Source: Elusimicrobiota bacterium
Lineage (GTDB): Bacteria > Elusimicrobiota > Elusimicrobia > UBA1565 > UBA9628
Direction: 5' to 3'
NCBI GenBank assembly: GCA_027327915.1
Contig: DAHVWT010000001.1
Span: 1 to 61,940, forward strand
DNA length: 61,940 nucleotides
The translations under genes and the position numbers were made by a program. Positions 13,052 through 44,633 of the stretch are shown here, one piece after another. Within the stretch, counting starts at the first letter, position 1. Each line of letters starts with the position of its first letter. The notes under the pieces were generated by a model. It made no database searches, was not told the DNA's origin, and saw nothing but the letters and a program-made list of their open reading frames with translations.

Positions 13052-13057
13052 CTTCGA

Positions 13058-22951: not shown

Positions 22952-24301
22952 TCAACCGGTTTCCACGGCCGTTCGGATGTCGGACTGGAGCCTGTTGACC
23001 AGCTCCAAGAAAAAGGGATCCGAGAGTTTTTCCTTGATTTTATCGCGGGCGTGGAGGACCGTCGAATGGTCGCGGCCGCCGAAGAATTCCCCGATCTCCT
23101 TCAGGGACAGTTCCGTCATTTCGCAGGCCAAATACATCGCGAGTTGTCGCGGCATCGAAACCGAGGAAGTGCGCTTCTGTCCCTTGAGATCCTTGGCATC
23201 GATCGAATACTTCTGGGCGACCATGCGCTGGATGGTGTCGACGCGCACGGGGCCCAAGTCCTCCGGGGACACGCTGTCCTTGAGAATTTCCTTGGCTTCG
23301 TCGACGGTCAGGGCGCTGCCGGTCATGGAAGTGAAGGCCTTGAGGCGAATGAGCGCGCCTTCGAGGGTGCGGATGCTGTTTTTGATCGATGAGGCGACAT
23401 AGACGAGCACATCGTCCGGAACGTAGAAGCGTTCGACGTCCGCTTTCTTCCTGAGGATGGCGATGCGGGTCTCCAGATCCGGGCTCTTGATATCCGCCAC
23501 GACCCCCCACTCGAGCCGCGAAAGAAGCCTTTTCTCGATCTGGGACATGTCTTGAGGGGAACGGTCGGAGGCGATGACGACTTGGCGACGCGCTCCATGG
23601 AGGGCGTTGAAGGTGTGAAAAAACTCCTCCTCGCTTTTTTCCTTGGAGATGAGGAACTGGATGTCGTCGATGAGGAGGCAATCGAGGCTCCGGTATTTGG
23701 AGCGGAAGGCGTCGGTCGTGCCGAGCCGGATGGCGTTGATGTAGTCGTTGACGAACTGTTCCGCCGTCGTGTAGAGAAGCCCCGCGCGCGGAGAAGAGCG
23801 CCGGATGTGGTTGCCGATCGCGTGGAGGAGATGGGTCTTTCCGAGACCGACGCCGCCGTAGAGGAAGAAGGGGTTGTACTGGGTTCCCGGCTTTTTCGCG
23901 ATGGCCTCGGCCGTCGCGTGAGCGAGACGATTGGAGTCGCCGACCACGAAAGACTCGAAGGTGTAGCGCGGGTTGAACTCGGTCGAGGCGAAATCCGATT
24001 GCGGAGTCGGCGTGGGAATGGGGTCGGCCGCCGTCGGCAACGAGGCCAGGCTTTGGGATATCTGATAGTCGATGAGGATGGGCTCGCCGGCCAGATCTTT
24101 AAGGATCGCCTCAAGACGTTTTTGATAGCCGTCGCGGATGCCGTTGAGGAAAAATTTATTCGGGACCTTCAGAGTCAAAATGTGGTTTTCGAGCTTGAAG
24201 GCCTCGACCGGATGGAGCCATAAATCGACGGACTCGGCGCCTATCTCCCGCTGAAGCTTTTCAAGGGCTCCGCCCCAGAGTTCGGCGTGGGGGTTATTCA
24301 C
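22952..24301 (-). CDS. dnaA: Chromosomal replication initiator protein DnaA
   Basis: FESFVVGDSNRLAHA, GGVGLGKTHLLHAIG, LLIDDIQF, and the domain IV signature (RDHSTVLHARDKI). Confidence 0.97.
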   Translation of the reverse strand: MNNPHAELWGGALEKLQREIGAESVDLWLHPVEAFKLENHILTLKVPNKFFLNGIRDGYQKRLEAILKDLAGEPILIDYQISQSLASLPTAADPIPTPTPQSDFASTEFNPRYTFESFVVGDSNRLAHATAEAIAKKPGTQYNPFFLYGGVGLGKTHLLHAIGNHIRRSSPRAGLLYTTAEQFVNDYINAIRLGTTDAFRSKYRSLDCLLIDDIQFLISKEKSEEEFFHTFNALHGARRQVVIASDRSPQDMSQIEKRLLSRLEWGVVADIKSPDLETRIAILRKKADVERFYVPDDVLVYVASSIKNSIRTLEGALIRLKAFTSMTGSALTVDEAKEILKDSVSPEDLGPVRVDTIQRMVAQKYSIDAKDLKGQKRTSSVSMPRQLAMYLACEMTELSLKEIGEFFGGRDHSTVLHARDKIKEKLSDPFFLELVNRLQSDIRTAVETG

Positions 24302-30671: not shown

Positions 30672-32255
30672 TCATAGCGGCGCCGCCAACGCCGCGGGAT
30701 CGGCCCAGAGCCGCTCCAGGCGATTGAGATCGAGGGCCTCGGCCACGTGTTCGCTCCGGATCTCGGGGCTTTGTCCCAAATCCGCGATCGTCCTCGACAG
30801 CCTGAGCGTGCGGTCAAGGGTTCTCGCGGAGACGGACCATCTCCGGGAGGCGGCCTCGAGGAGCTTGAGTCCGTCGCCGTCCAAGCGGCAGAAACGGCGC
30901 AGCTCCCTCGCAGGGATGCGGGCGTTGACGGCGAAATCCATTCCCCGGAAGCGTTCTTCCTGTATCTTCCGGGCCCCGAGAACGGCCTGCCGCGTGGTCG
31001 CGGAAGAGGGCGCGGCCGTCTCCCGCGCCTTTCCGGACCATTCGTCGAAGGCGATGGGGTTCATCTCGGCTAGGATGTCGATGCGGTCGAGGAGCGGGCC
31101 CGAAAGCCGCTGAGCGTAGCGCCCCAGCATCAATGGAGTGCAGAGACATTCGCGTCGAGGATGCCCCCGGAAGCCGCAAGGGCAGGAGTTCGTCGCCGCG
31201 ACGAGCATGAAGCGGGCTTGGTATTCGACGGCTTCCCGTGCGCGGGCGACCGTGATGCGCCCCTCCTCGAGAGGTTCCCGGAGCGCCTCGAGCGCCTGGC
31301 GGGAAAACTCGGCTAGTTCGTCGAGAAACAGGACGCCGTGGTGCGCCAGCGCGACCTCCCCGGGCTTGGCCCAGGGCCCCCCGCCCACGAGCGCGACGGC
31401 GGAGGCTGAATGATGGGGGGCGCGGAAGGGGCGTTGCCGGACGAGACCCGAGCGCGCCGCCCCGCTCCTCCCCGAGAGGGAGTGGACGCGCGTGATTTCG
31501 ATCATCTCTTGGGTTTTGAGCGGAGGGAGGAGGCCCGGCAGGCGCCTGGCGAGAAGGGATTTCCCCGTGCCGGGAGGGCCGATGAGGAGGATGTTGTGCG
31601 CTCCGGCCGCGGCGACGGTCATGGCGCGCTTGGCGAAGGCCTGCCCCTTGATGTCGGATAGGTCCTCGGCGTCTCCGGCCTCCGGCTCGCCGCCCGCGGC
31701 GCCGTCGCCGCCGGGACCGGCGTAGGGCCGCGGCTTTTCGCCGTCGGGCGCCCCGAGGAGAGCGACCGCCTCGCGAAGGGAATTGACGGGATGGACGGGA
31801 AGGCCCGCCGCCGCGGCTTCCTCGGCGTTCGCCGCGGGGACCGCCAGCGCCGTGAAGCCGAGCCTCTTGGCCTCCAAGGCCAGAGACAGCGTCGATTCGA
31901 TTTTCACGACGGTCCCGTCCAAAGCGAGCTCCCCCAGCAGGCAGAGGCGGGCTCCGGCGATGCTTTTCGGGATCTGCCCCGTGGCCTCGAGGAGGGCGAA
32001 GGCGATCGCCAGGTCGAAATGAGTTCCTTCCTTGCGGGCCCGGGCGGGCGACAGGTTGACGGTGATCCGTTTGGGAGCGAGGAAAAAGCCCGAGTTGCGC
32101 AGGGCGCCCATGAGCCTCTCCTTGGACTCCCGGACGGCCGCGTCGGGGAGCCCGACCACCGCGTAGGCCGGGAGGCCGTTGGCGACGTACGCCTCGACGG
32201 CGACGCAGTAACCCTCCAATCCCCGCAGCGCGAGGGAGTGCGCCCTGGCGATCAT
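30672..32255 (-). CDS. comM: YifB/ComM-family Mg-chelatase-like AAA+ ATPase
   Basis: N-terminal Lon-protease-like domain (GLPDAAVRESKERL), Walker A GPPGTGKS, Walker B VLFLDEL, and a C-terminal Mg_chelatase_C region. Confidence 0.9.
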   Translation of the reverse strand: MIARAHSLALRGLEGYCVAVEAYVANGLPAYAVVGLPDAAVRESKERLMGALRNSGFFLAPKRITVNLSPARARKEGTHFDLAIAFALLEATGQIPKSIAGARLCLLGELALDGTVVKIESTLSLALEAKRLGFTALAVPAANAEEAAAAGLPVHPVNSLREAVALLGAPDGEKPRPYAGPGGDGAAGGEPEAGDAEDLSDIKGQAFAKRAMTVAAAGAHNILLIGPPGTGKSLLARRLPGLLPPLKTQEMIEITRVHSLSGRSGAARSGLVRQRPFRAPHHSASAVALVGGGPWAKPGEVALAHHGVLFLDELAEFSRQALEALREPLEEGRITVARAREAVEYQARFMLVAATNSCPCGFRGHPRRECLCTPLMLGRYAQRLSGPLLDRIDILAEMNPIAFDEWSGKARETAAPSSATTRQAVLGARKIQEERFRGMDFAVNARIPARELRRFCRLDGDGLKLLEAASRRWSVSARTLDRTLRLSRTIADLGQSPEIRSEHVAEALDLNRLERLWADPAALAAPL

Positions 32256-33670
32256 CGAGGCGTCCCTTCCCCGTCGGCGCCCGCGGATTCCCTCTGCCGG
32301 GCGAGCAGGAAGTGGAAGGTCGTCCCCAGGCCCGGCTGGGATTCGAACCAGATCCGCCCGCCGTGCTTGGAGATGACCTCCCGGCAGAGCGCCAGCCCCA
32401 GTCCCGTCCCCGGGGCCTTGACCTCGGCATGGTTGGAGGCGCGGAAGAACTTCTCGAAGATGCGGTTATGCTCCGAGGCGGGGATGCCGATGCCGTTATC
32501 CTGGACGGAGACGACGATGAATTCTCCCTTGTCGCGGGCCGCAATCCTCACCTGCCCGCCCGGCCGCGTGAATTTCAAGGCATTCGACAGGATATTGTCC
32601 ACGACGAGGGAGAGCCATTTCGGGTCCCCCATGACAAGGGGGAGATCGCCCGGAATGTCCGTGGAGACGATCTTCTGGGCGCTTACGGCCTGTGGGGCGA
32701 GCGAGTCGACGCTCGATTCGACGATCTCCGCGATCCGGAGAGGGCGCATCTCCATGGAGACTCCCCCCTCGAGCCTCGTGAGATCCAAGAGCTCCAAAAC
32801 GATCGCCTCGAGGCGCCTCACCGATTTCAAGGCCATGTTCAAAAATCCCGTCTGTTTGTCGGTCAACGGCCCCGCCTCGCCCTCCATGAGGATGGTCAAA
32901 AACCCTCCCAGCGTCGTCAATGGAGTGCGGAACTCATGGCTTGCCGTCGACACGAACTCATCTTTAATACGGTTGAGGGCCTCCAATTGTTCCGTGGCCC
33001 AGGACAATTTTCTGTTGAGCATGGCCGTTTCGACGAGGATGGCGACCTCGTCGGCGATGAGGCGGGCGAAGCGCAGGTCGTCCGGCGTGAAGGAATCGGG
33101 CTGGACGCTTCCCACCCTCAGGACGCCCAGGGAGTGGGACTTCGTCTTCAAGGGAACCACCATCAGGGATCGGATGTTCCAGAGCTTGGCGTATCCGGCG
33201 GTGACGGAGGGGTCGCTTTGGGCGTCTCCGGTCATGAACGGCTCTCCGGACTTAAAGACCCGGACCGACGAGGAATTCTCCGCGGAAATGGGGATGCGGT
33301 AGAACTGGTCCTCGCTGTCCAGGCCGAAGGCTCCGGGCTGGGTGACAAGCTCCATCGTCGCCTCGTCGAGCGCCATGAGCGCCGCGAGGTCCGCCTTGAG
33401 GTATCTGGCGACGATTGTGACCACCGCGCTGAAGGCCGGTCTGGCCTGTTCGGCTTCCGCGGTGAGCGCCGCGGCCACCACCCGTAGGGTCTTGACCTCC
33501 CGGCGGCGGTGGTGTATCTTGCCGCGCGCCTCGGTCAGGGCTTCCTGGGATTTGGATCGGGAGTCCGTGAGCTCGCGGCGCAGCCTCCGGTTGACGGCGA
33601 GCGCCCAGGCGGCGAGAGCCAGAGCCGAGAGCGTCGCGACGCCCCACAAGAGATCAGAAGGCGGCATCAT
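32252..33670 (-). CDS. Membrane-anchored GAF-domain sensor histidine kinase
   Basis: N-terminal TM segment, coiled coil, GAF-like region, H-box FVSTASHEFRTPLT, N/G boxes (NALKFT, DNGIGIP, GTGLGLA). No cognate response regulator is adjacent. Confidence 0.9.
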   Translation of the reverse strand: MMPPSDLLWGVATLSALALAAWALAVNRRLRRELTDSRSKSQEALTEARGKIHHRRREVKTLRVVAAALTAEAEQARPAFSAVVTIVARYLKADLAALMALDEATMELVTQPGAFGLDSEDQFYRIPISAENSSSVRVFKSGEPFMTGDAQSDPSVTAGYAKLWNIRSLMVVPLKTKSHSLGVLRVGSVQPDSFTPDDLRFARLIADEVAILVETAMLNRKLSWATEQLEALNRIKDEFVSTASHEFRTPLTTLGGFLTILMEGEAGPLTDKQTGFLNMALKSVRRLEAIVLELLDLTRLEGGVSMEMRPLRIAEIVESSVDSLAPQAVSAQKIVSTDIPGDLPLVMGDPKWLSLVVDNILSNALKFTRPGGQVRIAARDKGEFIVVSVQDNGIGIPASEHNRIFEKFFRASNHAEVKAPGTGLGLALCREVISKHGGRIWFESQPGLGTTFHFLLARQRESAGADGEGTPR

Positions 33671-35105
33671 GAAAAAAGGCGTGGAGAAGATCCGCGTGAG
33701 CCGCGAGATAGGCGTCCGATTCCGACTCCTGGTTTGCCGGGAGCGCCGCGCCGGCCAGGCCCAGGCCGGCGATGGCCGCGAGGAGACGGCGCGCGCGGGG
33801 GCTCCCGGACGCCGCGACCCAATCGTCGGCGTCGCCGTCCGCGACGACGACGGCGTCGCAGGAGGCGTGAGCGCGGCCGGCTGCGTCCGGAAAAACGTCC
33901 TCCTCGGATCCGTCCTTCTCGGGATACGGGCGCGCCGAAACCGGCTGATAGCGGGGGAGCTGGGGCCAGCGGCGGCCCTCGGTCAGGAACCGGTCCAAGG
34001 ATGCCCGGGCATCGGCCTCCAAGCTTTCGGGATAGAAGAACGCGAGACGCCTCGGCCTTCCGCCGTCACGCGCGGCTCCCGCGTCGAGAAGGCCCGCCGC
34101 CTTGAGCGGTTCCAGGGACAAATCGAAGGCGCTTGAGAAGCCGGCCTGCCGCAAGGCCCCGAGCCTTCTGAGCCAGGGATAAAGGACGGGGAATCCCCCG
34201 TTGTCCGGAAGCTCCGCGAGCAGGGCCTCAAGCGCCTCGGGCTCGACGATGAGTCCGTTGCGGCTGAAAAAACGGTCCGCGGCGGCGAAGAGGATCTTTC
34301 CCGAGGGCGGGGCGGTCTCGACCTCCCGCGCGAGTTCTCCGGAGGGCGTCGTCAACTCGTTGGCTTGACGGCCCATGAGATCCGAATTCGCCGCGATCGC
34401 GACCTGGAGGCCGCGGCGGCAGTAGTCCGCGGCGATTCTCGCCGCCAGCCTCGCGCCCGCTCCCGGCCCCAGGAGATGGGCGTCGTCGATGAGGAGAGCG
34501 CGCCGCGAACGGAAGGCCGCGCCGTAGGCCTCGGCGCGGCCCGCGCGAAGGGCCGCCGCCGCCCCGAGATCGAGATCGAGGGCGCCGACGAGCATGGCGC
34601 TTCCAGGACCCCAGCGCCGCTCGAGTTCCCCCATGATGGCGTTGAGAAGATGGGTCTTGCCGGAGGAGGACGGGCCCCGGATGACGAGGGGATTGTGCAG
34701 AATTCCCGGAGAGGCGGCCGCCTCGCGAGCCGCGGCGAAAGCCAAGCGGTTGGCGGGGCCCACGCAAAAGGCGTCGAAGGTCTGGCCCGAGTCGTGGCGC
34801 CTGGGTCGCGGCCCAGCCGGAATGTCCGGCCCGGCGGGAGCGGGCCGAGGGCTTTTTCGAGGCGTCGGGAAGAGGCCCTCCAGGGCCTCGAGGAACGCCT
34901 GGCGCGCGCGTTCGTCAAGTTGATGGAGATAGAGCTTGTAATTGAAGCCCTCCGGGCATGACGAGGCGTCGGGCCTGCCGCAGAGGGCGCCCATCTTCGC
35001 CACGAGGGCCGATATTTCTCCGAGGTTCCCCTTGATGAAAAGCTGATGGCGGAGAGGATCGCGGCTTGACGGCGCGGGCTTGAGAAGCCAGCGTGGCGAA
35101 GTCAC
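33654..35105 (-). CDS. Divergent DnaA/Hda-like AAA+ ATPase lacking DnaA domain IV, with an extra C-terminal domain
   Basis: QTFDAFCVGPANRLAFAAAREAAASPGILHNPLVIRGPSSSGKTHLLNAI resembles the DnaA domain III entry and Walker A. ALLIDDAHLL is a Walker B. A lid-like segment LFAAADRFFSRNGLIVEPEALEALLAEL follows. There is no DnaA signature HTH. The start is uncertain: GTG at 35105 was chosen because the upstream gene stops at 35135, and the next in-frame ATG is at 34994. Confidence 0.7.
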   Translation of the reverse strand: MTSPRWLLKPAPSSRDPLRHQLFIKGNLGEISALVAKMGALCGRPDASSCPEGFNYKLYLHQLDERARQAFLEALEGLFPTPRKSPRPAPAGPDIPAGPRPRRHDSGQTFDAFCVGPANRLAFAAAREAAASPGILHNPLVIRGPSSSGKTHLLNAIMGELERRWGPGSAMLVGALDLDLGAAAALRAGRAEAYGAAFRSRRALLIDDAHLLGPGAGARLAARIAADYCRRGLQVAIAANSDLMGRQANELTTPSGELAREVETAPPSGKILFAAADRFFSRNGLIVEPEALEALLAELPDNGGFPVLYPWLRRLGALRQAGFSSAFDLSLEPLKAAGLLDAGAARDGGRPRRLAFFYPESLEADARASLDRFLTEGRRWPQLPRYQPVSARPYPEKDGSEEDVFPDAAGRAHASCDAVVVADGDADDWVAASGSPRARRLLAAIAGLGLAGAALPANQESESDAYLAAHADLLHAFFHDAAF

Positions 35106-35134
35106 GGGAGCGCTCGACTTTGGGCTTGGCAAAG

Positions 35135-35710
35135 TTAGAATTGCAGCTTGAAGATGATTTCGATGACGGAGGCCTTGCGTCCCGCGGAGAAGGCGTCGAT
35201 CTGGCGTCGGGCGATGCCCGCGGAGCGCAAGGCCTCCGCGAGAGCCTTGAGCCAATCGGCGCCGAGGCCGTCTGGAACGACGACGGCGAGATCCGCGCCG
35301 GCCGCCTTCGCCTCCGCCGCGACGGCGGAGGGGTCCTCGCTCCCCGAAACCGCCCGATCGAGACATTCTTCGATCGCGAGGGGGCTCTTTGTCGCACCGG
35401 AGGCGAGGGTCTTGAGAAGAGAAGTCAGCCGCTCTTTGGCGGCCGCGCTCTTGGCGGTGCGAATAAAAGCAATCAGTCGTGTCCCCGGGCTTTTGGCGGC
35501 GGGGTTCGTGGCGGGGGGCGGCGACGCGAAGACGGGAACGGCCGCCGCGGAGACGGAGGCGGCCGCCTCGGGAATCGACGGTTCAGTCTCGGGCGCGGTT
35601 GGGCGATGCGGGCGTTCGGCAGGCTTGAGGGCCGAATCCGGGACAGCGCGGAAAACGGCTTCGAGGTCGGTCCAGACGCCCAGGGCTTTCTTGGGCGGCA
35701 AGGGACTCAT
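35135..35710 (-). CDS. Hypothetical protein (Pro/Ala-rich linker plus C-terminal alpha/beta-like domain)
   Basis: 191-aa ORF, ATGA-coupled to the upstream small gene. Its C-terminal ~100 aa resemble, by eye, the C-terminal domain of the DnaA-like ATPase (RLIAF.../RLAFF...; DLAVVVPDGLGADWL / DAVVVADGDADDWV). Confidence 0.55.
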   Translation of the reverse strand: MSPLPPKKALGVWTDLEAVFRAVPDSALKPAERPHRPTAPETEPSIPEAAASVSAAAVPVFASPPPATNPAAKSPGTRLIAFIRTAKSAAAKERLTSLLKTLASGATKSPLAIEECLDRAVSGSEDPSAVAAEAKAAGADLAVVVPDGLGADWLKALAEALRSAGIARRQIDAFSAGRKASVIEIIFKLQF

Positions 35711-36019: not shown

Positions 36020-36325
36020 TCAGCGCGCGATCTTGATCGAGATCTGGTCAAGATACTTTTCCAAATCGTCGTGAGGGCGAGGGATCACGTGGACGCTGAC
36101 AAGCTCGCCCACTTTCTGGGCCGCGGCCGCGGCCGCGTCGACGGCGGCGCGCACCGCGCCGACTTCTCCGCGGCACAAGGTGGTGACAAGCCCCGAGCCG
36201 ATCTTCTCGTATCCCAGAAGGCGGACCTTGGCCGCCTTGGCCATCGCGTCCGACGCCTCGATCATCCCGACGAAGCCCTTGGTCTCGACAAGTCCCAGGG
36301 CCTCACGAACCGAAACCTCCGCCAT
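36020..36325 (-). CDS. BMC-H shell protein (PduA/EutM-type single BMC domain)
   Basis: [58 protein letters not shown]...VHVIPRPH is the canonical PF00936 pattern. Confidence 0.92.
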
Positions 36326-36361
36326 AAGAGCCTCCTTTCACGTCGACATTCATCTCGCTTA

Positions 36362-36676
36362 TTACGCCTCGCTCCAATCGTCCTCGTCCGCCTTCTTTTC
36401 CAGCTCGAGGATCGCCCCGCACGAGCCGCAGCGCTTGGCGGGGCTGTAGGTTCGCACGCATTCGTCGTCCTCCGGCCACCATTCCTCGAAAAACATGTCC
36501 GCCTTCTTGCGGCAGGCGAGGCAGAAGCGCTCCATGCCCGCCCCGCATCGCGGACAGAATTTGGGGGCGACCGCTTTTTCCGGCGAGGTTCCCGGCGCCT
36601 GGTGAATGAGGGCGCCGCAGGAGCCGCATTGATAGTCGATCGTGAGCTTGAATTTGGCGGGCTTATTTTTGGACAT
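36362..36676 (-). CDS. Double zinc-ribbon protein with an acidic C-terminal tail, function unknown
   Basis: 104 aa with four CxxC pairs (CGSCG, CPRCG, CLACR, CGSCG) and the tail EKKADEDDWSEA. Embedded between deoC and BMC-H. Confidence 0.7.
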   Translation of the reverse strand: MSKNKPAKFKLTIDYQCGSCGALIHQAPGTSPEKAVAPKFCPRCGAGMERFCLACRKKADMFFEEWWPEDDECVRTYSPAKRCGSCGAILELEKKADEDDWSEA

Positions 36677-36699
36677 GGTGGTGATCGTTCTAATCCGCT

Positions 36700-37746
36700 C
36701 TAGTATTTTCCCGGGGCCGGCTCCGATCCCGTGACGATGGCGACGCTTGCCGAGGTTCCGAGCCTTGTCGCCCCGGCGCGCACCATGGCTTGGGCGGCGT
36801 CGGCCGACCGGATGCCGCCCGAGGCCTTGACCCCCATCAAGGGGCCGACGGTCTCCCGCATGAGCTGGATGTCCTCGACGGTCGCTCCGCCCCCGCCAAA
36901 GCCCGTCGAGGTCTTGACGAAGTCGGCGCCCGCCTTCTTCGAGAGGAGGCAGGCGCGGATCTTTTCTTCCCGGGACAAAAGCGACGTTTCAAGAATCACC
37001 TTGAGCACGCGCCCGCGTGTTGCCTCCCGCACGGCCTGGATGTCGGAGAGGACCAAGGCGTCGTTGCCGGACTTCAGGGCGCCGATATTGAGCACCATGT
37101 CGATTTCCTCGGCGCCTCCCGCGATCGCGTCGCGCGCCTCGACGGCCTTGACGGTCGAGGTGGTGGAGCCGAGCGGAAAGCCGATCACCGTGCAGACCTT
37201 GACGCCGCTGCCCGCCAGGAGCCTTGAGGACAGCGGGACATAGCTCGGAGGAATGCAGACGGAGGCGAAGCAGTAGGCTTTGGCCTCCTCGCAGAGCTTC
37301 GCGATCTCCTCCTGGGTCGCGTTGGGCTTCAAGAGGGTGTGGTCGACGAGCCGGGCGATGGGGGAGCAGTTTTTCGCCGGCTTGCAGACGGCGACGCGGT
37401 CGAGGCCCAATTCCTTCAAATCCTTTTCGCTCAAGCTCGAAACGTTGTCGCAGTGGGGGCAGGCGGCGCCGGATCCGGAATGGTCCTCATCGCCGGAAGA
37501 TGCGGAGACCGCGGAAGAGCCGGGGCTCGCCGGAGCCTCCGGGGTCTTGCGCCAATCGCTCGAGAAGACCTTGCCGGCGGTCCCGATCGTGGTCCGGGCG
37601 CCGTTTTGCAGCGGTTTGAGCGACCCCTCGCCGTCTCGCCAATCGGTCCTCGAGGAGGGCGTCGAATCCGAGCCGCCGAGATAGCCCCTCTTGTGGAGGA
37701 CGCCCACGATCTCCTCGACGATCTTCCTGATATCAGGCTCACTCAT
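36700..37746 (-). CDS. deoC: Deoxyribose-phosphate aldolase (DERA) with a ~120-aa N-terminal extension carrying an encapsulation-peptide-like helix
   Basis: The DERA core starts at [24 protein letters not shown]....FASVCI, with the Schiff-base region [11 protein letters not shown]. The N-terminus is [23 protein letters not shown] followed by a long low-complexity linker. Confidence 0.9.
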
Positions 37747-38035
37747 AGCTTTTGGCCTTCCTCCCCGACACCACTTTTTCGACGATGCCGCAGACGACGG
37801 CGCGGACCGGAGCGTTCCGGTCGCCTAAAATCTGGCGCGCGCCGTTGCCCTCGTCCACGACCAAGACGACGCTGCCGGGGCCCGAGTCGACGCCGCCGTC
37901 GATCGCCATGACGGCGTCTCCCAGGGGCCTTTCCGTCAAGGGGTCGATCGGTTGGACGAGGAGCAGCCGGCGCTTTTCCATCGAAGGATGCTTGCGCGTC
38001 CCCCAGACGTTTCCCACGACGCTCGCGATGAACAT
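37739..38035 (-). CDS. BMC-P pentameric vertex protein (EutN/CcmL family)
   Basis: [31 protein letters not shown]...[21 protein letters not shown] is the PF03319 pattern. ATG at 38033..38035 shares 1 nt with the upstream stop. Confidence 0.88.
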
Positions 38036-38334
38036 TACCGGCGGCCCCCCCCTGCGGGCGCCCTGAAATTCCTGGCCTGATGCCCGTCCACGATCCCGAC
38101 GACGGCCGCGTCGACGGGCGGGACGTCCTCGAAGGCGACGGCCGCCTCGCGCGCGGCGACCCAGAAGACCTTCTCTCCCGCCCCCGCGCCGACGGCGTCC
38201 GCGGCGACGATGGAGGGCCCCTGCGCGGACTCGTCCTCCCACCGCAACGGCTGGATGAGAAGGAGTTTTTTGCCCTCGATGGCTTGGTCCTGCCGCGCGC
38301 AGAAGACCCGCCCCACGACCCGCGCGAGACGCAC
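38035..38334 (-). CDS. BMC-P pentameric vertex protein (EutN/CcmL family), second copy
   Basis: From GTG 38334: VRLARVVGRVFCARQDQAIEGKKLLLIQPL...AADAVGAGAGEKVFWV....A. Confidence 0.8.
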   Translation of the reverse strand: MRLARVVGRVFCARQDQAIEGKKLLLIQPLRWEDESAQGPSIVAADAVGAGAGEKVFWVAAREAAVAFEDVPPVDAAVVGIVDGHQARNFRAPAGGGRR

Positions 38335-38335
38335 G

Positions 38336-38818
38336 TTATTGGCCTCCCCGGCAGCCGCAGGCGGCCGAGAGCGGCGAATACTTATGCTCGATCTGGGAGA
38401 TCTTGGCGAGCCGGCGCTCATGACGGCCGCCTTCAAACGGTGTCTTGAAAAAGACGTCCAGCATTTCGGCCCAGGCCGCCTCGCCGTGGGTCTTTCCGCC
38501 GAGACAGAGGATATTCGCGTTGTCGTGGGCCGCCGCGAAGCGGGCGGAGACGGAGTTGTAGGCCGCGACGGCCCGGACGCCGGGGATCTTGTTGGCCGCA
38601 AGGGCCACCGCGCCGCCAAAGCCGTCCAAGAGAACGCCCTTCTCGAACTCTCCCGAGGCGACGGCCTCGCCGACCAGAAGCGCCACGTCGGGGAAGTCCA
38701 CGGCCTCCGGAGAGTGGCATCCGAAATCCGCCACCTCGTGCCCCGCGGCCTGGAGTCTCTTCTTGACGAACTCCTTGGCGGCGAAGCCGCCGTGGTCCGA
38801 CCCGACGACGATTCTCAT
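38336..38818 (-). CDS. rpiB: Ribose-5-phosphate isomerase B (RpiB/LacA/LacB family)
   Basis: MRIVVGSDHGGFAAKEFVKKRL...GVLLDGFGGAVALAANKIPGVRAA...HDNANILCLGG. The start overlaps the BMC-T stop (ATGA). Confidence 0.9.
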   Translation of the reverse strand: MRIVVGSDHGGFAAKEFVKKRLQAAGHEVADFGCHSPEAVDFPDVALLVGEAVASGEFEKGVLLDGFGGAVALAANKIPGVRAVAAYNSVSARFAAAHDNANILCLGGKTHGEAAWAEMLDVFFKTPFEGGRHERRLAKISQIEHKYSPLSAACGCRGGQ

Positions 38819-39366
38819 TTTCCGATCGTCTTCAAGAGCTGTTCGTGGGCCTGCGGGATGACGACGTGGGAGACGAGCATCCCCTCGGGCAGGATCGAAA
38901 CCCCGGCCGCGACGGCGGACTTGACGGCGCCCACGTCGGCGGTCATCGTGACGTAGCCCTTGCCGCCGCCCACGACGGTCTTGACCTCCAAGAGGTGGAC
39001 GCGCGCGGCCTTCGCGGCGGCGTCCGCGGCCATCACGGTTGAAATCGCTTCCTTCGTCTCGATGATGCCGACGGCGTCGAGGCTCTCGACGGGCCGGCGC
39101 TTCTCGAGCGCCTCCAGGACCTGGGAGTGGACGTTGCGGATGATGACCTCGTCGATCCTCGTCTTCCCCGCGATCTCGCGCCCGGCGCGAAGAGAGCTTT
39201 CGACCTCCCCCACGGGGCCCGAGACGAGGATCGTGTATTTCCCGCGGGCGATGACGGCGGTCTTGACCAAGGACACCGAGGCCATCTTGCACATGGCGTC
39301 CGAGGCCTCGATCCCCTTGGCGATCGAGGAGGTTTCCAGAAGTCCGACGGCGAGGTGAGCTTGCAT
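38815..39366 (-). CDS. BMC-T shell protein (tandem BMC domains, PduT-like size)
   Basis: 183 aa with two PF00936-like halves (AVGLLETSSIAKGIEASDAMCK... and AVGIIETKEAISTVMAADAAAKAARV...). Confidence 0.88.
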   Translation of the reverse strand: MQAHLAVGLLETSSIAKGIEASDAMCKMASVSLVKTAVIARGKYTILVSGPVGEVESSLRAGREIAGKTRIDEVIIRNVHSQVLEALEKRRPVESLDAVGIIETKEAISTVMAADAAAKAARVHLLEVKTVVGGGKGYVTMTADVGAVKSAVAAGVSILPEGMLVSHVVIPQAHEQLLKTIGK

Positions 39367-39384
39367 GGGGGATTCCTTTTTAGG

Positions 39385-40824
39385 TTAGGCGATCCTGAAG
39401 TAGCCGACCAGGCTGCAATGCAGCGGCCGGGCGAAGTGCATGGTTTTGGTGAGCCCGTCTCCCGTCGGGGTCCCGATCGACATGGAGGCGTAGCCCTCCC
39501 CCATGCCGAGCCCGAAGAGGTTCGGCGCGTTTTTGACGTAAATCGAGCACTGCATGCGCCGGCCCATCCGGGTGAGGTTGCCGACGTGGGTCGAGTGCAT
39601 GGAGGCCGTGTGGTGGTTCTCCCCCTCGGCCGCGTAGGCGAGCTCGATCGCGGCATCGACGTCGGGAACCTGGGTCACGGGCATGACGGGCATCAGCTGC
39701 TCGGTCCAGACGAAGGGATGATCGTTGGGGACCGCGGCCCACAGGAGGCGCGTCGTCGGCGGCACCGAAAGGCCGATGCCTTTCGCGATGTAGGCGGCGT
39801 CCTTGCCGACGTACTGTCGGTTGAGCCGGGGGTCCTTGCAGCCGCGGCCTCCCTCGACGATGACGAGCTTCGTCAGGGCGTCGAGTTGGGCGGGCGAGAG
39901 CTCGCAGGCGCGGGTGTCCCGGCGCAGGCATTCCAGAAATCGGCTCCAGGCGGCCTCGACGACGATCGTTTCCTTTTCCGCGGTGCACAGGACGTTGTTA
40001 TCAAAGGAGGCGCCGAAGACGATGTCCGAGGCGCATTGCGGGAAATTCGCGGTTTCATCCACCACCGCCGGCGGATTACCGGGCCCCGCCGCGATCGTCT
40101 TGCAGGTCTTGCCGACCGTCATCGCGACCTTGACGATGGCGGGGCCGCCGGTCACGAGGTTGACCCGCACGTCCGGATGGGCCAAGAGCGCCTTGGTCGT
40201 CTCCTGGGACGCGGGGGAGACCGTGACCATGAGATGGGGCGGCGCGCCGGCCTGGACGGCGGCCGCGCTCAGCACCCGCATCGCCTCGGCCGAGCATTGC
40301 GCCGCGGCCGGATGCGGCGAGAAGACGACGGCGTTTCCCGCCGAGAGGATCGAAATCGAGTTGTTGATGACGGTCGCGCCGGGGTTCGTCGAGGGGGTGA
40401 CGGCCGCGACGACTCCGAAAGGCGCGTACTCGACCAAGGTGAGGCCCTTGTCGCCCGTGTAGGCGCGGGACTCCAGGTCCTCGACGCCGGGGGTCCTGAG
40501 GGCGCAGATGAGGTTTTTCTGGACCTTGTCCTCCGCGCGGCCCATTCCCGTCTCCTCGGCGGCCATGCGCGCCAGCCGCTCGGCGTTGGCGACCGCGGCC
40601 TTGCGCATCGCCTCGATGATCTTGCGCCGCGCCTCGAGGCCCAGGCGCTGGAACTCCTCCTGGGCGGCGCGGGCGGCCTTGACGGCGTCGTCGACGCTTG
40701 AGAAGACGACGCCGGAGTCGCGAGCGGAGCCCCCCGACGCGCCCCAGGCGGCGTTCATCGTGCCCTGGGCCTTGAGGCGATCAAGGACCTGCGCGACGAC
40801 GCTCGCCAGTTCCTCCGGGGCCAT
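39385..40824 (-). CDS. CoA-acylating aldehyde dehydrogenase (PduP/EutE-type) with an N-terminal encapsulation-peptide-like helix
   Basis: ATG at 40824. The N-terminus MAPEELASVVAQVLDRLKAQG plus a linker precedes the ALDH core (PFGVVAAVTPSTNP, catalytic Cys region FDNNVLCTAEK, GEG..S). Confidence 0.92.
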   Translation of the reverse strand: MAPEELASVVAQVLDRLKAQGTMNAAWGASGGSARDSGVVFSSVDDAVKAARAAQEEFQRLGLEARRKIIEAMRKAAVANAERLARMAAEETGMGRAEDKVQKNLICALRTPGVEDLESRAYTGDKGLTLVEYAPFGVVAAVTPSTNPGATVINNSISILSAGNAVVFSPHPAAAQCSAEAMRVLSAAAVQAGAPPHLMVTVSPASQETTKALLAHPDVRVNLVTGGPAIVKVAMTVGKTCKTIAAGPGNPPAVVDETANFPQCASDIVFGASFDNNVLCTAEKETIVVEAAWSRFLECLRRDTRACELSPAQLDALTKLVIVEGGRGCKDPRLNRQYVGKDAAYIAKGIGLSVPPTTRLLWAAVPNDHPFVWTEQLMPVMPVTQVPDVDAAIELAYAAEGENHHTASMHSTHVGNLTRMGRRMQCSIYVKNAPNLFGLGMGEGYASMSIGTPTGDGLTKTMHFARPLHCSLVGYFRIA

Positions 40825-40826
40825 GC

Positions 40827-41147
40827 TCAACGGGGACTCCTCGCCGGCTGGGCGTCGGAGGCCTTCTCGAAGACCCTGCGTCCTCCCTCCTCGACCGAGT
40901 CGACGATGGCGAAGATGGAGGCGTCCACGGGGCGCTCCTGCGTCCGGGCGGTCTGGCGCGCGGAGGAACCCTGGACGACGAGGACGAGCTCCCCCTCCCC
41001 CGCGCCCACCGTGTCGACCGCCACCAAGGGGTTGCCCCGGGGCTCGTTTTTGAGGTCGACCGGCTGGATGAGAAGGAGCTTGAAGCCCACGAGCTTCTCG
41101 TCTTTCAGGGTGCAGACGACGGTTCCCGTCACACGCGCGAAGATCAT
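40827..41147 (-). CDS. BMC-P pentameric vertex protein (EutN/CcmL family), third copy
   Basis: MIFARVTGTVVCTLKDEKLVGFKLLLIQPVD...AVDTVGAGEGELVLVVQGSSAR. Confidence 0.88.
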   Translation of the reverse strand: MIFARVTGTVVCTLKDEKLVGFKLLLIQPVDLKNEPRGNPLVAVDTVGAGEGELVLVVQGSSARQTARTQERPVDASIFAIVDSVEEGGRRVFEKASDAQPARSPR

Positions 41148-41158
41148 CGGTGGCCGCC

Positions 41159-41263
41159 ACGGAAGGCTACGGAAGGCCACGGAAAGCCGCGGCGAGTCTC
41201 CGGCATGGCGGACTCATGCTTTCGAGCCTTCCGTCGCATCTGTGGCCTTCTTTTGCTTTCCGT
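41159..41263. repeat. Structured repeat element in the BMC-H / BMC-P intergenic region
   Basis: Three tandem 10-mers, ACGGAAGGCT ACGGAAGGCC ACGGAAAGCC (41159..41188). Their reverse complements follow in the same (not nested) order: AGCCTTCCGT (41225..41234), GGCCTTC (41244..41250), GCTTTCCGT (41255..41263). Shares motifs with 13003..13051. Confidence 0.55.
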
Positions 41264-41272
41264 TGCTTGGAC

Positions 41273-41572
41273 CTAGCGCTTGCCGCGGCCCAGGGTCTCG
41301 GGGAGGGAAATGGGCATCTTCCCCTCGAGGTCCGGGTGGGGCTGCGGGATCACGTGGACGGCGATAAGCTCGCCCACTTTCTGCGCGGCGGCGGCGCCGG
41401 CGTCGCAGGAGGCCTTGCAGGCCGCGACCTCTCCGCGGAAGAGGATGGTGACGAGGCCCGTGCCGACCTTCTCGTAGCCGACGAGCTTCACGTCCGCGGC
41501 CTTGACGGCGGCGTCCGCGGCCTCGACGCAGGCGACGAGGCCTCTTGTTTCGATCATACCGAGTGCGTACAT
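41273..41572 (-). CDS. BMC-H shell protein (PduA/EutM-type), second copy
   Basis: [59 protein letters not shown]...VHVIPQPH. Confidence 0.92.
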
Positions 41573-41609
41573 GGTTATCTCCTTGGCTTAGCTTGATGCG
41601 GCATGGAAA

Positions 41610-42248
41610 TCAGACGATGCGGACCTCGTCGCCGCCGCGGAGCCAGGCGGCGTTGGCCTCGTCGGTGTCGACGTGAAACTCGAGGCTGAACTTGTCGGAG
41701 ACTCGGCAGAGCACCTGCTCGAAGACGAGCTCGCGCGGCCCGTTGGTTCCGGCGCGCACGCGCACGACCTCGCCGTCCTCGATCCCCAGGGCCTTGGCCT
41801 CGAGGGGATGGAAATGGATGTGGCGCCGCGCGACGATGAGTCCCTCCTTGATCTCAAGCGAGCCCTTGGGGCCGATGACGCGCACGCGCGACGACCCGGC
41901 GAGATCGCCCGAATCGCGGATGGGGGGCCTCAGGCCCAGGGCCTGGGCGTCGGTCTGCGAAATTTCAATTTGGGTCTTGGAGCGGTGGGGCGCCACGAGG
42001 CGGACGTTTTTGATGGCGCCCTTGGGACCCTCGATGTCCACGGTCTCGTAGCAGGCGTAGAAGCCGGGCTGCTTGACCTGCTTGAATTTGCGCACCGCCG
42101 CGCCCTTGCCGAAGAGGACGTCGAAGTCCTCCTGCTTGAAATGGACGTGTCGGTTGGAGACCCCGACGGGGATCGCGGTCTTCGAGCGCTCCATGCGCGA
42201 GACGATCTCCGCCGTGATGCGCCGGGCGAGCTCGGGGTCCTGGTCCAT
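41610..42248 (-). CDS. pduL: PduL-type phosphate acyltransferase with an N-terminal encapsulation-peptide-like helix
   Basis: Two PduL repeats (IPVGVSNRHVHF and IVARRHIHF) and the N-terminus MDQDPELARRITAEIVSRMERS. Confidence 0.92.
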   Translation of the reverse strand: MDQDPELARRITAEIVSRMERSKTAIPVGVSNRHVHFKQEDFDVLFGKGAAVRKFKQVKQPGFYACYETVDIEGPKGAIKNVRLVAPHRSKTQIEISQTDAQALGLRPPIRDSGDLAGSSRVRVIGPKGSLEIKEGLIVARRHIHFHPLEAKALGIEDGEVVRVRAGTNGPRELVFEQVLCRVSDKFSLEFHVDTDEANAAWLRGGDEVRIV

Positions 42249-43036
42249 TAGGGTCTCCGGGTCCCGGCGGCCGCGAGGGTCTTATAGTGGATAATGCGGA
42301 GGAAAGAGATCGGCTTGAGGCTTTCCCCGCCGACCAGGGCGCCGTCGACATCCGGCTGGGCCATGAGGGCGTCGATGTTTTCGGCCTTGACCGAGCCCCC
42401 GTAAAGGATGCGCAGGGCCGAGGCGAAACCCTCGCCGTGGGCCTGGGATGCGAGCTTGCGGATGAAAGCGTGGGCTTCCTCGGCCTGGGCCGGGGAGGCG
42501 GTCTTGCCGGTTCCGATCGCCCAGACGGGCTCGTAGGCGAGGGTGATCTTGGCCGCCTCGACAGGCGGCAGGCCCGTGAGGGCGGCGCGGAATTGCTCGG
42601 TGAGCGCCCCCCACGTCTTCTGGCTCTCGCGCTCCTCGAGGGTTTCTCCCACGCAGAGGATCGGCAGAAGGCCCGCGGCAAGCGCCGCGGCGAGCTTTTT
42701 CGCGACGATAGCGCTCGTTTCGCCGAAAAGCCGGCGCCGCTCGCTATGCCCCACGATCGCGTAACGGCATCCCGCGTCGGCCAACTGGAAGGCCGAAATT
42801 TCCCCCGTGAAGGCTCCCTGGGGCTCCCAATGAAGATTTTGCGCCCCGAGCTTGACGGGGCTTCCCTTGAGAATTTCGGCCACGACGGCCAGGGCCGTGA
42901 AGGGAACCAAGAGAGCGACCTCGGCATCTCCGGCCCCCACGCCCTCCCTGATCTCTCGCGCGAGCTTGGCCGCGTCGGCCAAGCCCAGATGCATCTTCCA
43001 GTTGCCGGCGATGAGGGGGATGCGTTTGGGGTTCAT
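42248..43036 (-). CDS. tpiA: Triose-phosphate isomerase
   Basis: MNPKRIPLIAGNWKMH, AIVGHSERR, YEPVWAIGTG, YGGSV. Start taken at ATG 43036 (family-typical N-terminus) rather than GTG 43060. The stop overlaps the pduL start by 1 nt. Confidence 0.9.
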   Translation of the reverse strand: MNPKRIPLIAGNWKMHLGLADAAKLAREIREGVGAGDAEVALLVPFTALAVVAEILKGSPVKLGAQNLHWEPQGAFTGEISAFQLADAGCRYAIVGHSERRRLFGETSAIVAKKLAAALAAGLLPILCVGETLEERESQKTWGALTEQFRAALTGLPPVEAAKITLAYEPVWAIGTGKTASPAQAEEAHAFIRKLASQAHGEGFASALRILYGGSVKAENIDALMAQPDVDGALVGGESLKPISFLRIIHYKTLAAAGTRRP

Positions 43037-43043
43037 TCTAGTA

Positions 43044-43060
43044 GTGGCCAAATTGGCCAC
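43044..43060. promoter_or_regulatory. Perfect 8-1-8 palindrome in the tpiA 5' leader (candidate operator or RNA hairpin)
   Basis: GTGGCCAA-A-TTGGCCAC lies 7 nt upstream of the tpiA ATG. It contains two TGGCCA hexamers, and a third TGGCCA lies at about 43088. Confidence 0.35.
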
Positions 43061-43112
43061 ACGCTCTCGTTCCGGCGGCCGGGCGCCTTCTTAAGCGTGG
43101 CCATGGCAACCG

Positions 43113-43142
43113 ATTTTAGCGAATGGCGGGGAAACGGGTCAA
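43113..43142 (-). promoter_or_regulatory. Sigma70-type promoter for the BMC operon
   Basis: Minus-strand reading: TTGACC (43137..43142), 18-nt spacer, TAAAAT (43113..43118), about 75 nt upstream of the tpiA start. Confidence 0.5.
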
Positions 43143-43711
43143 TATTGCGACAAGGGAATCCACAAGGTCCCGGCCGTGATGCTCGGCTCCGGGCCGGGAC
43201 CTTCGGGGCATGGCGCGGCGCCGCCGTCTCGAAGAATGCGCAGGGGGCGCACGCCGGCTTCCCGGGCGGCGCTCAATTCCCGCGCCGAGCTGGAAAAGAA
43301 AAGGACGAAGCGCCCCGTTTTAAGCTTATCGAGAAGGCCCTCGAGGGATCCGGCCAGGACAAAGCGCCCCGGGGGAAGCAGGTAGCGCCAGTCCTTGACG
43401 AGATGCTCCGAATCCTGTTCCGGGCGGGCGCTGACGACCTCGACGCGAAAACCCAAGAGCCGGAAAAGCCAAGCCAGGGCGTAGGGAACTATTTTCACGC
43501 GCTCCAGATCGTAGGAGCGATTGACCTCGGCCCAGAAGCCGCTCGAGCACGCGGGAGCGGCCATGGCGGCGGCTTTGGAGAAGGCCGCCCGGGATTGGAC
43601 GAGGGTCCCGTCGAAGCCGAAGCCCACCGAGAGCCTGGCCAGCGTCGCGAAGCTGAAAAGCGCCGCCCAGGCGGCGAGGAGAACGAAGGACTTCTTGATT
43701 CGTCCTGTCAT
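43139..43711 (-). CDS. Signal-anchored HAD-like fold protein with degenerate catalytic motifs
   Basis: From MTGRIKKSFVLLAAWAALF. GFGFDGTLV resembles HAD motif I but lacks the first Asp. The FFSSSAREL region lacks the motif IV acidic residues. Confidence 0.5.
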   Translation of the reverse strand: MTGRIKKSFVLLAAWAALFSFATLARLSVGFGFDGTLVQSRAAFSKAAAMAAPACSSGFWAEVNRSYDLERVKIVPYALAWLFRLLGFRVEVVSARPEQDSEHLVKDWRYLLPPGRFVLAGSLEGLLDKLKTGRFVLFFSSSARELSAAREAGVRPLRILRDGGAAPCPEGPGPEPSITAGTLWIPLSQY

Positions 43712-43734
43712 TTTGCCGATGAATCCCTTGGAGC

Positions 43735-44334
43735 TCACCGCAACCCCTCCGATTCGAGGAGAAAGCCCTCGATGGCCTCGTCGAGGGCCGCCGCCGCCTC
43801 GAGAAGCAGGCGCAGCACTTCGCCCCGCTCGAGACCCTGGATGAAAGGAGCATCCCCTTTCCAAAGCTTTTCCTGCCCCTCCCGCAGAATGCGCGCCAGG
43901 GCCCGGGTCGAGCGGCGGGAGTCAAGGAGCAGGGGCTCGCGCTTGGCGGCCGAGCTTGCCGCGAGAGCCCGGCGCAGCCCTCCCAGAGCGTCCTCGAGAT
44001 AGGCTGACGCGCGCCCCGCCGAGCGGTCGCGGGGCAGTCGCCAGTAGGCGTTCTCCTTGACCGCCCAGCGCAGGGAGGCGAAGGCGGAGCGGAGGCGCTC
44101 AAGGGCGAGAAAGCCCGAAGGGCCGACGGCGCCCCCGGCCGATTTCGAGGCGCTTTCAAGGCGCCTTTGAGCCGTCTCCAGACGGCCGGCCGCCTTCAGG
44201 GCCGAATCGGGGGAGGAGTGGGCGAAATGGGAGCGCAGCTCCTCGGCGGCGCCGCCCAGTTCCTCCTCGACAACGCGCAGCACGGCGGCGGAGCGCCTTG
44301 CGGGTTTTTGTTTCGAGAAAAAAAGGTCTTTCAA
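43735..44334 (-). CDS. Hypothetical alpha-helical protein
   Basis: 199-aa ORF, ATGA-coupled to the upstream small membrane gene. No recognisable motif. Confidence 0.5.
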   Translation of the reverse strand: MKDLFFSKQKPARRSAAVLRVVEEELGGAAEELRSHFAHSSPDSALKAAGRLETAQRRLESASKSAGGAVGPSGFLALERLRSAFASLRWAVKENAYWRLPRDRSAGRASAYLEDALGGLRRALAASSAAKREPLLLDSRRSTRALARILREGQEKLWKGDAPFIQGLERGEVLRLLLEAAAALDEAIEGFLLESEGLR

Positions 44335-44633
44335 CGGAAGAAATCGGGCGCCTGGGGCTTGCGCCGCTCGATCGTTTCAGGAAGAAAGCGGGAATAGCGG
44401 CGGCAGGCCGCGCCCAGCCCCAGGCAGGCAAGGGCGTAGGCGAGCTCGAAGCCCCCGTAGCGCATCCATTGCTCGCGCGTGACGAAGGTCCAGGGCTTGA
44501 CCGAATAGGCGTTCGCCTCCGGCTCCCCGACGAAGAGGTCGTAGAGCGACTTGGCCCCGACGAGGACGCCCCAGGCGATAAAGAGGTTCGCCAGGAGAAG
44601 AGCCAAGCCCCGGATTTTGATCTTTTCCGTCAC
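44331..44633 (-). CDS. Small membrane protein (two predicted TM helices)
   Basis: From GTG 44633: VTEKIKIRGLALLLANLFIAWGVLVGA...GGFELAYALACLGLGAA. The longer track ORF (to 44960) overlaps rpsI in another frame and is not used. Confidence 0.45.
   Translation of the reverse strand: MTEKIKIRGLALLLANLFIAWGVLVGAKSLYDLFVGEPEANAYSVKPWTFVTREQWMRYGGFELAYALACLGLGAACRRYSRFLPETIERRKPQAPDFFR

Follow-up and report, generated by a model that had tools for sequence, protein, structure and literature searches.

A DnaA-derived AAA+ ATPase family with two added domains, predicted from genes beside SPU-type microcompartment operons of Elusimicrobia

The first 61,940 bp of contig DAHVWT010000001.1 (assembly GCA_027327915.1, Elusimicrobiota bacterium), hereafter the window, contain a bona fide dnaA gene and, 9.4 kb away from it, a gene for a 483-aa DnaA-like AAA+ protein located between bacterial microcompartment (BMC) genes of the sugar-phosphate (SPU) type and a gene for a GAF-domain histidine kinase. 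Here, we report that this DnaA-like protein, as judged from its sequence, descends from DnaA domain III, is specific to the Elusimicrobia lineage, and apparently lost domain IV. It belongs to a previously undescribed and unnamed family with a new architecture, namely, an N-terminal domain of ~80 aa, a Pro-rich linker of variable length, a DnaA-type AAA+ core with a lid, and a C-terminal domain of ~130 aa. Family members are 474–677 aa long in a 15-sequence alignment. Coordinates of all features are given in Table 1.

The relationship to DnaA is most evident between Walker A and Walker B. The Pfam model Bac_DnaA matches residues 108–212 of the window protein (58.6 bits, E = 1.1e-15, cut-off 23 bits), covering profile positions 5–109 of 162 only, the stretch from Walker A to Walker B. 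When solved structures were searched with a profile, the only hits were DnaA chains (residues 106–213, E about 1e-12), and the DnaA encoded in the same window aligns with residues 86–212 at 37% identity and not beyond. Neither Bac_DnaA_C (domain IV) nor DnaA_N was matched by Pfam in the window protein or its relatives. Hence, the window protein does have a DnaA-type core and lacks a DNA-binding domain, and the first-pass annotation of the window was correct in describing a second, divergent DnaA-type AAA+ protein that lacks domain IV and is encoded close to the true dnaA. Its assignment of the core to DnaA domain III holds from Walker A to Walker B, whereas the second half of the core and the lid can be aligned with DnaA only via less-derived relatives.

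These relatives match the complete Bac_DnaA model (positions 1–161 of 162) at 100–105 bits, and in one of them, P0005, the match to the NCBIfam DnaA model reaches profile position 324. Among the NCBIfam models, the window protein ranks DnaA first (E = 2.4e-16, 59.9 bits), followed by Hda (6.7e-5) and IstB (0.078), all well under the cut-offs; the relatives score 128–142 bits with DnaA (equivalog cut-off 343.9), 44–48 with Hda, 37–40 with IstB, and 24 with DnaI. Since the relatives match full-length Bac_DnaA and the ranking is DnaA, Hda, IstB, the family descends from DnaA domain III; the window copy is a derived member whose AAA+ core is degenerate in its second half. The DnaC/DnaI/IstB proteins belong to the same AAA+ initiator/loader clade and give the weak matches mentioned above, but their scores are far under those of DnaA, their end domains differ, and the DnaA-like locus has no IS21 or primosome context.

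The active site was assessed in an alignment of the family with the bona fide DnaA of the window, and E. coli domain III was used for residue numbering only. Walker A and Walker B are conserved in all 15 aligned members, the Asp pair of Walker B is kept, and a polar residue is present at the sensor-I position. The position of the box VII arginine finger (R285 in E. coli DnaA) is occupied by Thr, Ser, or Ala, with a four-residue deletion there in the window clade, and the box VIII sensor-II arginine (R334) is replaced by Tyr, Ser, Pro, or Phe in all members. The lid-like region, devoid of the sensor-II arginine, has the invariant residues W311, R313, and R314, and the stretch equivalent to the initiator-specific helical insert of DnaA is kept in length. 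As the P-loop and Walker B are retained, the protein should bind ATP; at the same time, we infer that hydrolysis and oligomer-dependent activation cannot work as in DnaA or Hda.

In its layout (N-domain, low-complexity linker, AAA+ module, C-domain) the family mirrors domains I to IV of DnaA, which is also the best match of its AAA+ core. It differs from DnaA in having no domain IV, with its helix-turn-helix (HTH) and DnaA-box binding, in an N-domain unrelated to domain I, in the loss of both arginines, in scores of 60–142 bits against a trusted cut-off of 344, and in context, as a separate bona fide dnaA resides in the same window.

DnaA paralogues without the DNA-binding domain are hardly known apart from Hda, a protein of about 230–250 aa that consists of the AAA+ module only, binds the clamp through a motif at its N-terminus, and depends on its arginine finger. 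An Hda-like replication factor had been one of the suggestions of the first-pass annotation; such a protein would bind DnaA-ATP and the sliding clamp and promote ATP hydrolysis, or else titrate DnaA. The closest sequence relatives of the family are indeed DnaA proteins, the gene is near dnaA, and domain IV is missing, as in Hda. However, scores with the Hda model TIGR03420 are 22.5–47.8 bits against a cut-off of 194.8 bits, the arginine finger is not conserved and falls into a deletion in the window copy, and a regular-expression scan of the N-terminal regions for a clamp-binding motif (QL[SP]LPL-like) found it in 0 of 15 members. Moreover, the AAA+ module is accompanied by extra N- and C-terminal domains and a long Pro-rich linker, and the family is confined to one lineage. 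Taken together with the lost sensor-II arginine, these features exclude membership of both Hda and DnaA proper, and we consider an Hda-like function very unlikely.

The N-domain is conserved in all family members, with the invariant residues W6, P12, D16-P17, R19-H20, G39-A40, C42-G43-R44-P45, and H61; in the 15-sequence alignment, the invariant patterns read W, P.P, DP.RH, GA.CGRP, and LH. Comparison of its profile with DnaA N-termini by hhalign yielded a probability of 0.15%. The first-pass annotation omitted this domain, as well as the wider family and a PilT ATPase encoded in most related loci (see below). The following Pro/Ala-rich linker is about 25 aa long in the window clade and 100–250 aa long in other relatives, with short conserved motifs. 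The C-domain ends with a conserved motif, (Y/F)xxxHxD(L/F), and has no Pfam match; a non-DnaA domain is thus present at the C-terminus as had been claimed, but it comprises about 130 aa (residues ~350–483) rather than ~170. The AlphaFold2 (AF2) model of this domain has the order β-α-β-α-β-α, with the confidence score pLDDT up to ~70 in residues ~350–400 and lower beyond. Profile searches of PDB with the N-domain, the C-domain, and the domain of the partner protein described below gave no matches below E = 0.05.

The DnaA-like gene evolves under purifying selection, the ratio of nonsynonymous to synonymous substitution rates (dN/dS) being 0.31 in comparison with an orthologue at 84% identity and 0.30 with one at 57% (0.13–0.48 for individual domains). 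The respective values for the partner gene are 0.38 and 0.22, and the neighbouring genes have 0.16–0.17 (kinase), 0.23 (ComM), and 0.01 (BMC-H), so that selection on the pair is relaxed relative to its neighbours. With reading frames intact across all clades, the DnaA-like open reading frame (ORF) is a real, fast-evolving gene. Its GTG start is separated from the partner ORF by a 29-nt gap and its stop is overlapped by the kinase start by 17 nt, in line with the earlier remark that there is almost no intergenic space. Promoter and terminator scans of the intergenic stretches revealed nothing convincing.

The family comprises about 20 distinct sequences, all from Elusimicrobia. Word-indexed protein searches returned 6, 2, and 6 proteins, and only three close orthologues of the window protein came up in this way, at 84%, 87%, and about 57–58% identity. 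An exhaustive hidden Markov model (HMM) search of 1.84 billion representative proteins with the post-Walker-B region retrieved just the family itself and P0009 (E = 9.6e-4), which has the accession OGR87928.1 and is called "hypothetical protein" (Elusimicrobia bacterium RIFCSPHIGHO2_02_FULL_57_9). Both P0009 and P0005 are full-length relatives (28% identity) in which all three parts other than the linker are present. Scanning metagenomes with the alignment of the N-domain yielded 19 further loci, and a scan of species-representative genomes yielded two metagenome-assembled genomes. The window organism is present in metagenomes of mine drainage, tailings, and sediment. Literature searches for DnaA-like proteins in microcompartments and for DnaA paralogues found nothing, and the PADLOC defence models produced P-loop noise only. 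In one locus (L025:60–845), the N-domain ORF enters unrelated sequence after about 50 residues, suggesting a chimeric contig or a disrupted gene.

A homologue of the small partner gene is located upstream of every family member, and the 191-aa ORF noticed upstream in the first-pass annotation is thus real and conserved. In the relatives, the partner is a protein of 260–380 aa with a conserved N-terminal helix MADEPKKDHPEDIESILSDLDAILTDMGG, long PK/PA repeats containing short motifs, and an α/β domain of ~115 aa; the window partner is a shortened version of it. Linkers of both the partner and the DnaA-like protein are built of long tandem low-complexity repeats of the PKPVE(A/P) or PPMP type, variable in length, and short motifs inside these repeats (IELAPREGMIKPPEKKPEPPKP, KEPLISLGPE, PPTEVRMATP) are conserved, which suggests disordered regions with docking motifs.

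The N-terminus of the partner resembles those of DeoC, AldDH (MAPEELASVVAQVLDRLK), PTAC (DPELARRITAEIVSRM), and p91 (MLTRDDLIDLIVSQLK) from the same locus. Encapsulation peptides are defined as terminal amphipathic helices that are joined to a folded domain through a flexible linker of low conservation (PMC11585597), and the partner's helix with its linker looks like a peptide of this kind. The gene for p91 directly follows the last BMC-H gene in every related locus, its stop overlapping the start of the next gene, and the 45-aa C-terminus of p91 resembles that of TIGR02536 (eut_hyp; E = 6.4e-5). By sequence pattern, the partner and p91 appear to have an N-terminal amphipathic helix followed by a flexible linker, like the SPU cargo proteins DeoC, AldDH, and PduL/PTAC. 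They differ from these in that the attached domains are not known enzymes and their encapsulation is putative, and the DnaA-like protein has no such extension.

The C-domain of the DnaA-like protein had been thought, by eye, to resemble the upstream ORF. By BLASTP, the two share only a 15-aa match, AVVVADGDADDWVAA versus AVVVPDGLGADWLKA (E = 0.037). Profile-profile comparison by hhalign gave probabilities of 2.9% (4 vs. 5 sequences), 20.6% (6 vs. 4), 5.5%, and 6.8% (13 vs. 13), with E-values of 0.001–0.015 over all runs. The alignment register was identical in every test, and none of the 200 column shuffles reached the scores of 25.6 and 22.1 (shuffle means 10.2 and 10.9 with maxima of 16.1 and 16.6, z about 6–9); the reversed control scored 9.9. 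On the other hand, an HMMER profile of the partner domain did not recover the DnaA-like proteins, and the best non-self match of the C-domain profile among 2,849 ORFs was the L001 partner at E = 0.092. In a single-sequence ranking, the DnaA-like proteins occupied ranks 2, 4, 5, 7, 11, and 13 of 422, and a random ORF scored equally high. The partner-domain alignment suggests, by eye, the same β-α order and a length similar to that of the C-domain, while the low-confidence AF2 model of the partner is all-helical. The resemblance therefore stands as a score above all shuffles, at low hhalign probabilities and with failing HMMER profiles, and homology of the two domains is possible.

Synteny was analysed by phmmer mapping of the window and L005 proteins onto all 27 loci, and precomputed annotations have the same gene order. 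The last of the SPU genes are those for DeoC, a Zn-ribbon protein, and BMC-H; they are followed by p91, a PilT/PilU-family ATPase, the partner, the DnaA-like gene, and the GAF kinase, and then by a 334-aa lipoprotein-like gene, ComM/YifB, a TPR protein, an HTH protein, and DprA. The linkage that the first-pass annotation proposed to test is conserved. Among distinct loci that extend far enough, the partner is upstream of the DnaA-like gene in 18/18 and the kinase downstream in 13/13, and SPU BMC genes are upstream in all 10 loci whose upstream sequence spans 3 kb or more; the first gene of L005, at the contig edge, is a p91 homologue. The group of genes lies at the 3′ end of the SPU operon. 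Stop/start overlaps tie neighbouring genes of the module. In 11 distinct relatives, the PilT gene is inserted between those for p91 and the partner. The window clade (the window, L001/L003, L002/L004) has cleanly lost PilT and the 334-aa gene, the former at the p91/partner junction (35707/35710), and a LysM gene stands in place of the TPR gene. The downstream array (ComM, LysM or TPR, HTH, DprA, TopA) is conserved as well. Some genes are split in individual loci, namely, ComM into two ORFs in L004 (4790–6594) and L026, and the kinase in L026 (coordinates for the L026 splits 11171–13320 and 14390–15927), possibly by frameshifts or assembly errors.

Adjacency alone cannot point to one neighbour as the functional partner, because all loci represent one lineage with a syntenic 25-kb array. 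One may therefore suppose that the role of the DnaA-like protein is unrelated to any neighbour, the order is kept by regional synteny, and the window-clade gene may be drifting toward loss. The whole array from rpsI to dnaA is indeed co-directional and syntenic, the neighbours evolve more slowly than the pair, and the window copy has an AAA+ core that is degenerate in its second half. Yet dN/dS is about 0.3 and not about 1 in both comparisons, the ORFs are intact in all clades with invariant Walker and end-domain motifs, the genes are translationally coupled with their neighbours, and the partner has been retained alongside the DnaA-like gene in all 18 loci; this makes a role independent of the locus improbable.

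The distribution of PilT provides a further hint. In comparisons matched on the divergence of the kinase and ComM (52–59% identity), two PilT-retaining loci, L005 and L018, share 44% identity in the AAA+/lid region, and their N-domains, C-domains, and partner domains are 52%, 36%, and 39% identical; the respective values for the window and L018 are 28%, 35%, 24%, and 31%. The divergence of the kinase remained steady (52–55% identity) while that of the DnaA-like/partner pair accelerated in the window clade. Hence, the loss of PilT coincides with shorter linkers and faster divergence in the DnaA-like protein and the partner alike. As the acceleration of the pair coincides with the loss of PilT and the kinase rate was unchanged, these rates hint that the pair is tied functionally to PilT and not to the kinase.

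Domain III of DnaA binds single-stranded DNA (ssDNA), and PilT (408 bits), ComM/YifB (499 bits), and DprA are encoded in the same co-directional array. A role in DNA uptake or processing could be envisaged, in which the DnaA-like ATPase handles incoming ssDNA together with these proteins and possibly feeds deoxyribose into the microcompartment. The retained length of the region of the initiator-specific insert and the proposal that SPU BMCs catabolise DNA-derived deoxyribose (PMC8217296) agree with this scenario. Against it, the window clade without PilT still keeps the DnaA-like/partner pair, no DNA-binding domain was detected by Pfam in the window protein or its relatives, and the family has Gln or Gly where R245 of E. 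coli DnaA, a residue needed for ssDNA binding, aligns. Besides, adjacency of ComM, DprA, and TopA is common in bacteria whatever their competence. We regard participation in DNA uptake as quite improbable.

The other neighbour, the GAF kinase, is an orphan both here and in the related loci, as no receiver domain is found nearby: phmmer with CheY detected none in any locus and none within 10 kb of the kinase. The sole receiver-domain ORF of the window (~11400–12100, minus strand, E = 4e-8) is about 20 kb away. Given this, and the position of the kinase immediately downstream of the DnaA-like gene in 13/13 loci with overlapping or abutting stop and start, the ATPase and the partner could form a signalling module as accessory or output components of the kinase, e.g., an ATP-dependent switch or a non-canonical phosphorylation target, and their site beside the BMC operon would be incidental or reflect regulation of that operon. 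Both the C-domain and the partner domain are receiver-like in size and β-α order. However, neither has a conserved acidic pocket or a phospho-acceptor Asp at the end of β3, the rate of the kinase stayed constant while the pair accelerated in the window clade, so that their constraints look decoupled, and no precedent was found in the literature. A signalling role deserves some weight but is rather unlikely. The two domains were also considered as genuine response-regulator receivers and rejected as such, having no conserved Asp at the required positions, with the CheY search finding the unrelated ORF only.

The explanation that we tentatively favour, plausible but short of probable, is that the DnaA-like protein is an ATP-dependent adaptor or scaffold of a microcompartment-associated module that includes the partner and, in most lineages, PilT. 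The first-pass annotation had suggested a repurposed AAA+ machine connected with either the compartment or the kinase, and this reading survives. In the proposed scenario, a descendant of DnaA domain III shed domain IV and gained the N-domain, the disordered Pro-rich linker, and the α/β C-domain. It would hydrolyse ATP slowly and serve as an ATP-dependent adaptor or assembly factor, not as an initiator, with the end domains and linker motifs serving as protein–protein interaction surfaces. The encapsulation-peptide-like helix of the partner would tether the pair to the microcompartment, making the module an organelle accessory for assembly, organisation, or turnover, with PilT participating in most lineages. 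The window copy would be a reduced, fast-evolved version, with PilT lost, linkers shortened, and the second AAA+ half degenerate. By functional analogy only, this arrangement recalls the McdA/McdB system of carboxysome positioning, where an NTPase and a small, largely disordered adaptor are encoded beside BMC genes, the partner here having long PK/PA repeats and an organelle-targeting-like helix. McdA, however, is a ParA-type ATPase and not an AAA+ protein, and has no sequence relationship to the DnaA-like protein.

Several observations weigh against the adaptor or scaffold role. The entire 25-kb array, including the housekeeping genes for ComM, DprA, and TopA, is syntenic, so that adjacency may reflect inertia, and none of the loci has a break in the linkage that would single out the neighbour that matters. 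The coincidence of PilT loss and acceleration is a single evolutionary event. The encapsulation-peptide reading relies on a sequence pattern, as the hydrophobic-moment score failed to discriminate encapsulation peptides, and the DnaA-like protein itself has no obvious peptide of this type. The AF2 models have a mean pLDDT of 39 for the DnaA-like protein (alignment of 4 sequences) and 38 for the partner (3 sequences), too poor for a fold search. Metatranscriptomes of the same mine-drainage study provided no coverage of the gene, just spurious matches of 20–35 nt, and the SPU microcompartment literature (PMC8217296, PMC11585597) does not mention DnaA-like, PilT, or kinase genes.

A bolder version of the adaptor reading assumes an unrecognised ATP-driven accessory machine of the BMC, composed of a PilT hexamer, a disordered adaptor with an encapsulation peptide, and the DnaA-like ATPase, under control of the GAF kinase and maybe coupling DNA uptake or handling to SPU catabolism. 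If the folded domain of the adaptor were paralogous to the C-domain of the ATPase, the two might dock as a heterodimer. We find such a machine doubtful, and improbable in its full form.

Table 1. Positions of the DnaA-like gene, its parts, and other genes of the locus (window coordinates unless a related locus is named).
Feature	Position	Strand	Basis or remark
DnaA-like AAA+ gene	33654..35105	minus	GTG start at 35105, stop 33654-33656; 483 aa
N-terminal domain, novel	34857..35105	minus	residues 1-83; conserved across all family members
Pro-rich linker	34791..34856	minus	residues 84-105; family alignment
DnaA-type AAA+ α/β core	34320..34790	minus	residues ~106-262; Pfam and NCBIfam matches, alignment with bona fide DnaA
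Walker A, GPSSSGKTH	34650-34676	minus	within AAA+ core
Walker B, LLIDD	34482-34496	minus	within AAA+ core
Lid-like helical region	34071..34319	minus	residues ~263-345; aligned to DnaA lid via relatives
C-terminal α/β domain	33657..34058	minus	residues ~350-483, ~130 aa; family alignments
Small partner gene, 191 aa	35135..35710	minus	homologue upstream of every family member
Partner N-terminal helix ALGVWTDLEAVFRAV	about 35639-35689	minus	followed by Pro/Ala linker
Partner α/β domain	35138-35485	minus	residues 76-191
Partner-gene repeat linkers	L018:8872-9992, also L020, L026		family linkers in alignment
p91, 91 aa	35707..35982	minus	N-terminus MLTRDDLIDLIVSQLK encapsulation-peptide-like; Pro-rich linker
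PilT/PilU-family type IV pilus ATPase	L005:413-1498, L018:7781-8869, and 9 other loci		NCBIfam, 408 bits
GAF-HisKA-HATPase histidine kinase, membrane-anchored	32252..33670	minus	Pfam
334-aa protein, lipoprotein-type signal sequence	L005:5211-6215, homologues in L014-L026		no family match; between kinase and ComM
ComM/YifB Mg-chelatase-like AAA+ ATPase	30672..32255	minus	Pfam; NCBIfam YifB, 499 bits
LysM protein	30001-30651		replaces TPR protein of relatives
Bona fide dnaA, 449 aa, domains I, III, IV	22952..24301	minus	L001 Pfam: DnaA_N, Bac_DnaA, Bac_DnaA_C
SPU-type microcompartment operon	36020..44960	minus	window ORFs, L001 Pfam annotation, phmmer mapping
BMC-H	36020-36325	minus	window ORF
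Zn-ribbon protein, 104 aa, multi-CxxC	36362-36676	minus	between DeoC and BMC-H
DeoC	36700-37746	minus	window ORF
BMC-T	38815-39366	minus	window ORF
PTAC	41610-42248	minus	window ORF
TIM	ends at 43060	minus	window ORF
EutN (two), RpiB, AldDH, third EutN, second BMC-H			window ORFs, assigned by synteny with L001

Several features of the microcompartment segment were observed in passing. The Zn-ribbon protein is conserved in all related loci (53–95% identity). The co-directional array starts, between rpsI and the TIM gene, with three ORFs in a row that match no family (about 99, 199, and 198 aa; window ~43139–44960, minus strand, and L001:628–2116). The DeoC proteins of the window and L004 (L004:3–695) are 98% identical, with dS of 0.135 compared with 0.6–1.1 for neighbouring genes, whereas the DnaA-like proteins of the same two loci are only 57% identical. 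Part of the BMC segment may have recently recombined or been transferred between the two lineages.

The family shows reuse of an initiator ATPase core together with two new domains and outside replication. The result also corrects annotation, as the public records found have only the label "hypothetical protein" for this gene, and its Bac_DnaA domain matches could lead to its being mistaken for a second dnaA. The SPU type is among the most widespread and least understood types of BMCs. If the link to SPU microcompartments is true, it would implicate a DnaA-type or PilT-type ATPase in the biology of microcompartments for the first time and would offer a handle on the assembly, organisation, or regulation of the SPU organelle in uncultivated Elusimicrobia.

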